Source: Gammaproteobacteria bacterium (GTDB lineage Bacteria > Pseudomonadota > Gammaproteobacteria > JACCYU01). Taken from it: DNA of 64,000 nt. Where the stretch lies: the NCBI GenBank assembly GCA_013695765.1, contig JACCZW010000085.1:935-64934 (forward strand), written 5' to 3'. Positions 48,099 through 49,865 of this stretch are shown here, in pieces. A model generated the notes under the pieces. It saw nothing but the letters and a program-made list of their open reading frames with translations, searched no databases and was not told the DNA's origin. Within the stretch, counting starts at the first letter, position 1, and each line of letters starts with the position of its first letter. Both the position numbers and the translations under genes were made by a program.

Positions 48099-49865
48099 AT
48101 GGCGTATCGACACATCCAGTGGCCTGCAGGCGGCGCCAGGATCAGCATGACTGGCGACGGCTTGCGGGTGCCGCACGATCCCGTAGTCGGGTATATCGAG
48201 GGCGACGGCATCGGCCCGGACATCACGCGCGCCAGCCTGCGCGTGCTGGACACGGCGGTGGCAAAGGCCTATGCCGGCCATCGTCACATCCACTGGTGCG
48301 AGCTGTATATGGGCGAAAAGGCGGCTGGGCTCTTCGACGGGGATTACTTTCCGCAGGAGACGAAGGACGCGCTCAAAGAGATATCCGTCGCGATCAAGGG
48401 CCCGCTGACCACACCCATAGGTGAAGGCTTCCGCTCGCTGAACGTAGCGCTTCGCCAGCAACTGGATTTATACGCCTGTGTGCGACCGGTGCGCTATTAC
48501 CAGCACGTGCCCTCGCCCCTGCGGCATCCGGATAGAGTGGACGTGGTGGTCTTTCGCGAGAACACCGAGGACGTCTACGCGGGCATAGAATACGAGAGCG
48601 GCAGCCCGGATAACGAAAAGCTGGCGCGCTTTCTGCGCGACGAACTGGGCGAGCACTTTTTTGAGCACGCGGGTCTCGGGGTCAAGCCGATCAGCCCGCA
48701 CGGCTCCAAGCGCCTGGTGCGCAAGGCCATCCAGTACGCGCTGGATCAAGGCCGCGAGAGTGTCACCCTGGTGCACAAGGGCAACATCATGAAGTATACC
48801 GAGGGCGCGTTTCGCAAGTGGGGCTACGAGGTCGCCAGGGAAGAATTTCGCGAGCGCATCATCACCGAGGAAGAGCTTTATAACGACTGCGGCGGGCAGC
48901 AACCCGCGGACAGGATCGTCGTCAAGGATCGCATCGCCGATATCATGTTCCAGCTACTGCTGCTGCGGCCGGGCGAGTTCGACGTCATCGCGACGATGAA
49001 TCTCAACGGTGATTACCTGTCCGACGCGCTGGCGGCGGAGGTCGGCGGCATCGGCATCGCGCCCGGCGGCAATATCGGCGATGAGGTCGCGGTGTTCGAG
49101 GCGACGCACGGCACGGCACCCAAGTACGCCAACCAGAACAAGGTGAATCCCAGCTCGATGCTGCTGTCCGGGGTGCTGATGCTGGAGCACATGGGCTGGA
49201 ACGAGGCCGCGGACCTGATCAACGCGGCCTACCCCCAGGTAATCGGCGAAGGCTTCGTAACCTACGACTTCGCGCGCCTGATGGAGGACGCGCATGAGGT
49301 TTCCACCTCGCAGTTCGCCGACGCCCTGGTCGCCAGGATCACCGGCAACGCAGATGATCTCGCACGCCTGGAGGAGCAACGCCGCGAGACGCTGGAGCGT
49401 GATCGCCAGCTGCGCGAAGCGCAGCGCATGCAGGACCCGGTGCGGGCCATGAAGGCGTCGGGACGGCGTCCCGCCATCGCGGGCCAGGTGATGTCGGCGA
49501 TCAAGAGCGTGCCGAACGACGCGCCGCTGACGGGGGCCTTCCGGCTTATGCGCGATCAGAGCATCACTTCGATCCTGGCGGAACCGGACACGCTAGGCGT
49601 GTGGGGCATCATGACCCAGCGCGACATCGTGACCAAGATCGTCAGCCCCAATCGCGCGGCCGCCAGGATCAAGGTCAGCGAGATCGCGAGCCGGCCGCTG
49701 GTAACGGTGCCGCTCGAGGCTACTCTGCGGGATATATCCACGGCGATGACGGAACACGGCGTCCGCCGCGTGGTGGTCGAAGAACACGGTGAGCCGGTCG
49801 GCATGGTCTCGGAGACCGATTTATTCGAAATTGTCGAGGCATTCGGCTGGGATCCGGAGGAGTAG
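48099..49865 (+). CDS. icd: NADP-type isocitrate dehydrogenase fused to a C-terminal CBS-domain pair
   Basis: Residues ~1-415 align with homodimeric prokaryotic IDH ([64 protein letters not shown]). A charged linker follows ([23 protein letters not shown]). The last ~130 aa have CBS/Bateman pair character (...[13 protein letters not shown]...; ...[25 protein letters not shown]). AGGGGAG lies 8 nt upstream of the ATG. Confidence 0.8.

Follow-up and report, generated by a model that had tools for sequence, protein, structure and literature searches.

The 64,000-nucleotide stretch of DNA analysed here (hereafter the window; GenBank assembly GCA_013695765.1, contig JACCZW010000085.1, positions 935 to 64,934 of the forward strand) derives from a gammaproteobacterium and contains, at 48099..49865 on the forward strand, a gene coding for an isocitrate dehydrogenase (IDH) joined to a C-terminal pair of CBS repeats, i.e. 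a Bateman module. This IDH–CBS fusion is confirmed as a real, conserved bacterial gene. We hold it moderately probable that its product is a competent NADP-dependent IDH carrying a Bateman sensor, with an adenosine phosphate as the probable controlling ligand. It should be pointed out that the IDH and CBS domains are each well known, and that the novelty lies in a variant of the CBS-regulated enzyme that joins both.

The protein consists of three parts, namely an NADP-IDH, a charged helix of 28 residues and the CBS pair. Much of this had been anticipated in the original prediction, made from the sequence alone, which described a single 588-aa open reading frame (ORF) with a good Shine–Dalgarno site, a complete IDH of the homodimeric NADP type with intact motifs, a highly charged helical linker and two CBS-like repeats, in an architecture not known to have been characterised. 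All of these claims were borne out by the analyses reported below, and the motifs that it quoted are all present. The proteins of the family are labelled in databases merely as 'isocitrate dehydrogenase', and full-text literature searches on IDHs with a CBS or Bateman fusion found no study of this architecture, so that the fusion looks uncharacterised; PMC4720418 was a false lead.

The IDH–CBS gene and its distribution

The gene is a single ORF of 588 codons plus stop, beginning with ATG and free of internal stops. It is preceded by the Shine–Dalgarno-like sequence AGGGGAG (48084..48090, +), which was read from the sequence and, with its 8-nt spacing to the ATG, makes a good site. Full-length homologues of about 588 aa share the start MxYxHI with the window protein. 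A scan for promoters and terminators around the gene found nothing exceeding shuffle expectation.

Such a fusion could be an artefact of a chimeric assembly, of a stop or frameshift that was missed, or of read-through across two genes. The window ORF contains no stop, and the junction (about 49330–49480), which the original prediction had marked for verification, was examined in Logan contigs from soil and terrestrial metagenomes sequenced in independent runs. It is spanned by two 4.3-kb contigs, obtained in different soil metagenome studies, which cover 48766–50000 with zero insertions, deletions or joints, and the contigs of independent runs are identical and free of indels over 49330–49480. 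It is true that the gene is frameshifted in two draft genomes (Alkalilimnicola ehrlichii AK92, loci L077 and L257, and a Pseudohongiellaceae metagenome-assembled genome (MAG), locus L285), and that a genuinely split layout, with icd and cbs as separate genes, was found in this analysis in Rhodocyclaceae. However, the split forms have no linker, and their plain icd, which ends with its own stop after ...AMIDRM, belongs to another lineage, 56–59% identical to the IDH part of the window protein. Moreover, IDH and CBS are kept in a single frame at more than 140 genome loci of various species. The ratio of nonsynonymous to synonymous substitutions (dN/dS) between the window and its relative at locus L001 is 0.105 for the IDH, 0.155 for the linker and 0.162 for the CBS part, values which show that all three, the linker included, are under purifying selection as a single coding sequence. 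For practical purposes, the artefact explanation is already refuted, and we regard its probability as negligible.

Some observations on individual assemblies may be added. In AK92 (L077 8752..10510, the same as L257), the gene is broken into three ORFs of 193, 320 and 138 aa; the frameshifts in AK92 and at L285 may be either draft-assembly errors or pseudogenisation. At 48762..48795 of the window, breaks or pile-ups occur in the short-read contigs of every run, with depths of 37–413 compared with about 8–18 elsewhere. This segment encodes VHKGNIMK, which is near-identical in many IDH genes of the same metagenomes, and the pile-up is an assembly hazard, not a property of the IDH–CBS gene. An exact-sequence lookup of the window protein gave no match; a near-identical protein (P0002) traces to a single JGI contig of 7.9 kb, where its neighbours are those seen in the window. 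Short contigs on the gene, including its CBS part, are present in one metatranscriptome run, which is weak evidence that the gene is expressed.

A survey of the architecture, proposed with the original prediction, found at least 120 protein clusters and more than 140 loci, mainly in Gammaproteobacteria. Both PF00180 and PF00571 are present in all of the best 120 clusters, which are 64–100% identical and nearly all about 588 aa long (range 518–592), the shorter proteins being alternative start calls or fragments. The locus scans drew on species-representative genomes: with C-terminal peptides, IDH and CBS fell in a single uninterrupted tblastn alignment at 76 of the 80 loci among the matches listed, and with a degenerate DNA pattern both were in one frame at 71 of 115 loci, again among the matches listed. 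The exact CBS motif WGIMTQRD (described below) was found at 87 places in 185,579 species genomes, each of them encoding a relative; only half of the metagenomic clusters have it in this exact form, and in the rest position 6 is K or position 4 is V. Judged from these sequences, the family is present in well over 100 species. At 50% clustering, it is reduced to a fragment and a single full-length representative, P0121 (64% identity); the other matches among the best 150 are fragments or plain IDHs whose identity does not exceed 59%. From this we conclude that the fusion arose once.

The hosts are mainly gammaproteobacterial and belong to the Ectothiorhodospiraceae/Nitrococcus group, the Competibacteraceae, the Acidiferrobacterales and the Arenicellales. 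Among the Ectothiorhodospiraceae and their relatives are Halorhodospira, Alkalilimnicola, Aquisalimonas, Arhodomonas, Methylonatrum and Nitrococcus mobilis Nb-231; further hosts are Plasticicumulans acidivorans and many gammaproteobacterial MAGs. The closest relatives of the window are soil and sediment MAGs, i.e. L001 (Chromatiales, 82%) and L002 (80%, fully syntenic). The few family contigs found in bins of other phyla are probably mis-binned or transferred. A different combination was noticed outside the window in P0125 (776 aa), an IDH with a C-terminal malate dehydrogenase-like half (KVSVIGAGGVGATCAQ...).

Catalytic part, connector and Bateman module

The catalytic domain (residues 3–413, 48105..49337; this and all the following features of the gene lie on the forward strand) is of the prokaryotic homodimeric NADP type. 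It matched the NCBIfam model TIGR00183 (prok_nadp_idh) over residues 3–413 with 624.3 bits against a cutoff of 567.3, and NF005425 with 613.9 bits against 490, while Pfam placed PF00180 (Iso_dh) at residues 30–409 (E 1.4e-89). It aligned end to end with the structures of the E. coli and P. aeruginosa IDHs (E 1e-156 to 1e-159), the alignment to E. coli IDH (1ai2, E 1e-156) running from residue 8 to residue 412 of the query.

This alignment places the known functional residues of the E. coli enzyme in the window protein. The RSLN motif (48432..48443), with S113 (48435–48437) and N115, has the same numbering as in 1ai2, as have R119, R129, R153 and Y160; also kept are K227, D281, R290, D305, D309 and H337, which correspond to K230, D283, R292, D307, D311 and H339 of E. 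coli. Specificity for the 2'-phosphate of NADP is represented by KYANQNKV (49122..49145), whose K342, Y343 and V349 equal E. coli K344, Y345 and V351, and by TYDFAR (49260..49277), whose Y389 and R393 equal Y391 and R395; R290 likewise counts among the determinants of NADP specificity. In an alignment of 27 diverse members of the IDH–CBS family, all the substrate, metal, catalytic and NADP residues examined are invariant, including the RSLN motif, K342 and Y343. Because the key residues match those of E. coli and are invariant in the family, the IDH part is regarded as an active NADP-IDH, and is predicted to be a catalytically competent, NADP-specific enzyme of the homodimeric type I found in E. 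coli. S113 is the residue that AceK phosphorylates in E. coli, where it also binds the substrate; since it is needed for catalysis anyway, its presence says little about control by AceK.

Comparison of the alignments revealed some positions that are kept in the fusion family yet rare in plain IDHs, and that cluster in two segments. Residues 256–261 (TEEELY) stand in place of the GGPWLK loop of E. coli, and residues 375–381 (NAAYPxV) form the helix ahead of TYDFAR. Both are candidate contact surfaces for the linker or the CBS parts.

The linker (residues 418–445, 49350..49433) was predicted as a helix in both AlphaFold2 (AF2) models. About 62% of its residues are D, E, K, R or Q, with E425, R428, R429, R436, E440 and R443 conserved. 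A coiled coil was considered and ruled out, there being no hydrophobic heptad, and the conserved positions being charged. The distance from TYDF to the C-terminus is 198–204 residues in all of the best 120 clusters and 200–203 in 118 of them, and this near-constancy fits a rigid connector better than a floppy tether. The linker is followed by a short helix and loop with the pattern P-x-x-A-M-x-x-S-G-R-x-P (residues 447–458, 49437..49472; AF2 helix 447–454), in which M451, G455 and P458 are invariant and P447 and R456 at least 90% conserved.

Then come CBS repeat 1 (CBS1, residues 464–515, 49488..49643), supported by the Pfam score of the pair and by an AF2 predicted local distance difference test (pLDDT) of about 90, and CBS repeat 2 (CBS2, residues 526–579, 49674..49835), which scores 55 bits in Pfam (E 1.1e-14) with a pLDDT of 92–96. 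In the whole protein, Pfam finds two stretches of PF00571 with 64.8 bits against a cutoff of 24. The AF2 model of residues 409–588, built on a 61-sequence alignment, reached a pLDDT of 85.9 and a predicted template modelling (TM) score (pTM) of 0.71, and consists of the helix 418–445, the short helix 447–454 and two beta-alpha-beta-beta-alpha repeats. A Foldseek search of the PDB with the module gave 411 matches with E of at most 0.001, the top ones all being CBS pairs (probability 1.0, TM scores up to 0.82). The best were CBS-CP12 (5nvd/5nmu), PH0107, ST2348, Atu1752 and Rv2626c, followed by AcuB with AMP, ADP or Ap4A (diadenosine tetraphosphate) and by IMPDH with ATP or ppGpp. No solved IDH with a CBS-type module was found, and the PDB matches to the full protein end at residue ~415.

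The most conspicuous element of the module is W-G-I-M-T-Q-R-D (residues 502–509, 49602..49625), the ribose-phosphate motif G-h-h-T-x-x-D of CBS1, with G503, T506 and D509 as the motif residues. It is invariant in 28 diverse genomic members that are only 39–70% identical over the region. The strand VRRVVV (49761..49778) carries R556 and R557, a basic pair facing the cleft between the repeats; by analogy with other nucleotide-binding CBS pairs, R556–R557 may take part in phosphate binding. Altogether, four basic residues are conserved in the module (R508, K513, R556 and R557). CBS2 has a second motif of the type G-h-h-S-x-x-D (G-M-V-S-E-T-D, residues 568–574, 49800..49820), which is less conserved: G568 and S571 are invariant, but at position 574 some members have A, G, N or Q instead of D. 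Near the C-terminus lies F-G-W (residues 582–584, 49842..49850), of which G583 and W584 are invariant in the alignments of the fusion family. As far as sequence comparison can tell, conservation within the module is highest at the putative ligand site.

The module outside the fusion and its putative ligand

The same module was also found apart from the fused IDH. At 14 loci among the matches listed, a plain icd is followed on the same strand by a separate gene for a CBS pair of 132–136 aa (L263 2836..4577, L256, L260, L262, L264, L274, L276, L277, L284, L286, L296, L308, L336 and L344); the gap is 5–27 nt in 13 of the 14, and 121 nt in L262. The hosts are mostly Rhodocyclaceae/Betaproteobacteria, among them Sulfuritalea and Ca. 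Desulfobacillus denitrificans, the latter with a complete genome. Anaerolineales have the module joined to ribulose-phosphate 3-epimerase (Rpe) in a protein of 376 aa (19 clusters, 359–385 aa), exemplified by a MAG gene (L080 8200..9330, +; Pfam Ribul_P_3_epim plus two CBS), and found also at L279 and L281. Free modules occur in Chloroflexota as well, in Thermoflexus and Anaerolineae. In three Anaerolineae MAGs (L242, L290 and L309), free modules of about 135 aa lie some 470–520 nt upstream of a gene resembling the ATP synthase F0 a subunit, as judged by sequence inspection only, and in Thermoflexus and at L265 the free module adjoins diacylglycerol-kinase-like genes. No characterisation of the pairs of icd and free CBS gene or of Rpe–CBS was found in the literature, and both are apparently unreported further members of the module family.

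The window module is 37–45% identical to the free and Rpe-fused forms, and the linker helix, within a connector of ~45 residues, is absent from the free CBS proteins. What is invariant across the IDH-fused, Rpe-fused and free forms is a set of ligand-cleft residues (M465, A480, M484, WGIMTxRD, R556–R557 and G568), together with F576, V579, E580 and G583, and nearly so W584. Being fused in one lineage and closely adjacent in another, module and IDH provide classical Rosetta-stone evidence that the former works on the latter, and the conservation of the cleft whichever the partner argues that ligand sensing is what is conserved.

One might suppose instead that the CBS pair has no small-molecule role, and is an element of oligomerisation or stability, or a docking site for other proteins. 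The free form beside icd shows that the module can be a separate binding partner, the conserved C-terminal G-W and the charged linker residues suggest protein–protein contacts, and plant CBSX proteins dock to thioredoxins. In addition, dimerisation is nearly universal among CBS pairs, some of which give rise to higher oligomers (PMC6142219). However, the strictest conservation is in the ligand cleft and not in a surface patch, and it is invariant with IDH, with Rpe and with no partner, which a structural role alone would not demand. We therefore consider a purely structural or docking function unlikely.

CBS pairs often bind adenine nucleotides and act as energy sensors (PMC6142219). As an example, CBS-PPase is subject to inhibition by AMP and ADP, and to activation by ATP and Ap4A (PMC11172384). 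In the mechanism that we propose for the window protein, the Bateman module would act as a small-molecule sensor for a ribose-phosphate ligand, most probably an adenosine phosphate, i.e. AMP, ADP, ATP or a relative such as Ap4A. The ligand would bind in the cleft of the W-G-I-M-T-Q-R-D motif and the R556–R557 pair and change the module or its dimerisation, and the fixed-length connector, into which the last helix of the IDH runs on, would relay this change to the large domain of the enzyme. That domain, with its NADP 2'-phosphate site (Y389/R393) about 25 residues ahead of the connector, would respond by altered activity; in E. coli IDH, the NADP site belongs to the large domain, which moves relative to the small one during catalysis. 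At low energy charge the IDH would be switched on, while at high energy charge it would be turned down and isocitrate would be directed to biosynthesis, storage or the glyoxylate shunt. The physiological purpose would probably be to set oxidative TCA flux by energy charge, as the AMP-sensitive AceK does in E. coli and the ADP-activated IDH3 in mitochondria. In the fusion, allostery would operate inside one polypeptide, and in the window organism the fused IDH would act beside a second, plain IDH co-located with aceBA (see below). That a ligand binds, what it is, in which direction it acts and how the signal is transmitted are all given here as we infer them.

Several points weigh against this interpretation. 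Scanned alone, CBS1 reaches 20 bits (E 8.6e-4), which is under the Pfam cutoff; in the AF2 model, the two repeats nevertheless form a standard Bateman pair. The full-length AF2 monomer, from a 27-sequence alignment, is poor (pLDDT 69, pTM 0.48) and gives no trustworthy placement of the module on the IDH. The CBS2 motif is degenerate in some members, so that possibly a single site is functional. The direction of regulation is put forward purely by analogy, and ligand binding and a kinetic effect are predictions for every member of the family. Finally, CBS pairs also bind S-adenosylmethionine (SAM), NAD(H), c-di-AMP, (p)ppGpp or Mg2+, or sense ionic strength, and with such a range of ligands the one in question cannot be named from sequence alone.

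The last point leads to the alternative that the pair senses something other than adenosine phosphates, such as SAM, NAD(P)H, (p)ppGpp/GTP, Mg2+ or, as in OpuA, ionic strength. The Foldseek neighbours indeed include structures solved with SAM/methylthioadenosine (3kpb), ATP plus ppGpp (7pmz), c-di-AMP (5ks7) and Mg2+ (2yvy), but the combination of G-h-h-T-x-x-D with the basic cluster R508, K513, R556 and R557 best fits a ribose-phosphate, and c-di-AMP is, to our knowledge, not typical of Gammaproteobacteria. As to ionic strength, halophiles or haloalkaliphiles are numerous among the hosts (Halorhodospira, Aquisalimonas, Arhodomonas, Alkalilimnicola and Nitrococcus), but others live in soil, activated sludge and freshwater, so that the fusion is no halophile trait; adaptation to salt was ruled out as the main explanation for the same reason. 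Sensing of another ligand or signal is, in our opinion, unlikely, and control by an adenosine phosphate is the reading that we retain.

On a broader scale, we tentatively suggest that the module represents a portable Bateman family, characterised by W-G-I-M-T-[QK]-R-D, the RR strand and the C-terminal G-W, which may serve as a plug-in metabolite sensor of central-carbon enzymes, namely IDH in cis or in trans and Rpe in cis. If so, it would constitute an undescribed, AceK-independent control of flux at the isocitrate node by the energy state.

Genomic neighbourhood and comparison with known systems

In the window, the IDH–CBS gene is flanked by a HIT-family gene on one side and by convergent recR-ybaB-dnaX on the other. 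Further downstream, at a distance of 4.5–14 kb, are ppsA/ppsR (54394..57702), icd2-aceA-aceB and phaC-phaE. The gene icd2 (57734..59080, −) encodes a plain NADP-IDH paralogue of 448 aa that is 53% identical to the IDH part of the fusion and 65–83% identical to ordinary proteobacterial ICDs. Together with the co-directional aceA (59211..60617, −; Pfam ICL domain) and aceB (60666..62324, −; Pfam malate synthase domain), it forms an aceB-aceA-icd2 cluster (57734..62324, −) with a gap of 130 bp between aceA and icd2. Directly beyond aceB are the genes of a class III polyhydroxyalkanoate (PHA) synthase, phaC (355 aa) and phaE, the C-terminal part of which matches PHA_synth_III_E (62359..63942, −). 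The protein encoded by icd2 has an insertion of ~25 residues between TYDLAR and LMPGATL near its C-terminus, common to a subgroup of its relatives (match lengths of 1314–1332 nt compared with 1248 nt in most).

The second, plain IDH beside aceA-aceB and the lack of a visible aceK in the window were both part of the original prediction, and both were found to be correct. A tblastn search with E. coli AceK gave no match, whether in the window (64 kb) or in the flanks of 81 related loci (1.25 Mb), nor was aceK found by tblastn beside 80 icd2-like loci (the best 80 of more than 600 matches). In fact, icd2 occupies the slot after aceBA that is held by aceK in E. coli. The order aceB-aceA-icd recurs in L157, L170 and L174 (Steroidobacteraceae) and in L195 (Chromatiales), while in L158 aceA adjoins icd. 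Among the matches listed in the search for plain IDHs, which gave more than 600, only the L002 MAG overlaps the fusion set.

Other neighbourhoods of the fusion gene are different. Among the matches listed, ppc (phosphoenolpyruvate (PEP) carboxylase, ~880 aa) lies directly downstream on the same strand, at ~50–250 nt, in 28 loci, all of the Ectothiorhodospiraceae/Nitrococcus group (L024, L027, L041, L078 and 24 others), and a thiolase (acetyl-CoA acetyltransferase) gene is divergently upstream in 17; in Competibacteraceae loci, ppsR, mdh, acs and a LutA-like gene are nearby. It should be noted that naive clustering of the ORFs in the flanks, which are of high GC content, produced many spurious long ORFs, and that only clear identities (ppc, thiolase, pyrE and xth-like) were used. 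The general theme of the neighbourhood is the PEP–pyruvate–oxaloacetate/tricarboxylic acid (TCA) core. By contrast, aceBA is near the fusion gene only in the clade of the window (L002), and aceA downstream of it in one other locus (L010), so that a link to the glyoxylate shunt appears local to that clade. The original idea of nucleotide or energy-charge sensing at the TCA/glyoxylate branch point has to be divided accordingly: the sensor part is supported by the invariant CBS1 motif, by the arginine pair of CBS2 and by the occurrence of the module as a separate gene right after icd elsewhere, whereas the branch-point framing finds little support in neighbourhoods of this kind.

To the best of our knowledge, the post-translational control of bacterial NADP-IDH is textbook knowledge only for the phosphorylation switch of enterobacteria operated by AceK; most bacteria, as far as we know, have no AceK, and little is established about their tuning of the isocitrate branch point. 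An IDH with a built-in sensor, or an icd accompanied by a free CBS protein, is a directly testable alternative to AceK control, and the fusion probably gives direct metabolite control of a key enzyme of the TCA cycle. The hosts are of environmental and industrial weight, as they include the glycogen- and PHA-accumulating Competibacter and Plasticicumulans of wastewater plants, as well as sulphur and nitrite oxidisers and purple sulphur bacteria; in such hosts, much depends on how acetyl units are divided among oxidation, storage polymers and the glyoxylate shunt. The reuse of the module on Rpe suggests a general, transferable regulatory cassette, which could serve in biosensors or pathway engineering.

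Among the closest known systems is E. coli Icd (1ai2, 3icd), with which the catalytic domain aligns end to end with identical substrate, metal, catalytic and NADP residues, Ser113 included. It works at the same metabolic node, and the window has aceB-aceA nearby. However, E. coli Icd ends at residue 416, whereas the window protein has ~173 extra residues (the helix and the CBS pair), and the E. coli enzyme is switched by a separate one, AceK, through phosphorylation of Ser113. Extra C-terminal domains are also present in the IDH of Thermus thermophilus (2d1c, 496 aa) and in the PRK09222/TIGR02924 IDHs. Residues 20–352 of 2d1c align to residues 28–411 of the query, and ~144 further residues of 2d1c remain, but this extension has no match to the CBS part of the query. 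All of these enzymes are of a different IDH subfamily, for the models of which the window protein scores 290 and 237 bits, far under the cutoffs. The mitochondrial NAD-IDH (IDH3) shares the fold family of the window IDH (E 1e-47); ADP and citrate activate it allosterically, and ATP and NADH inhibit it. It differs in having paralogous regulatory subunits without a CBS module, and in being NAD-specific and hetero-oligomeric.

The best structural match of the module is the cyanobacterial CBS-CP12 (5nmu/5nvd; E 1e-11, root mean square deviation 1.8–2.6 Å), in which a CBS pair is joined to a protein that regulates central carbon metabolism; it binds AMP, and its lowering of phosphoribulokinase activity depends on AMP (PMC6142219). 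Nevertheless, its sequence identity is ~24%, its partner is a small disordered regulator and no enzyme, and it is a hexamer. The free CBS protein of Rhodocyclaceae has the same enzyme partner, IDH, as the window module, but the Rhodocyclaceae and Anaerolineales forms have no connector, and the partner is an IDH of another lineage or another enzyme. CBS-PPase and IMPDH are soluble metabolic enzymes covalently joined to a Bateman module, which binds adenine (or guanine) nucleotides and changes their activity (PMC11172384, PMC5454003), and the Bateman fold of IMPDH matches the window module (7pmz, Foldseek). Their CBS pair is inserted within the catalytic domain, whereas that of the window protein is C-terminal on a long helix, and their catalytic domains are unrelated to IDH, for which regulation by the fused module is a prediction. 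The principle by which a catalytic unit is joined to a Bateman module is nonetheless the same in IMPDH, CBS-PPase, cystathionine beta-synthase and AMPK as in the IDH–CBS protein.

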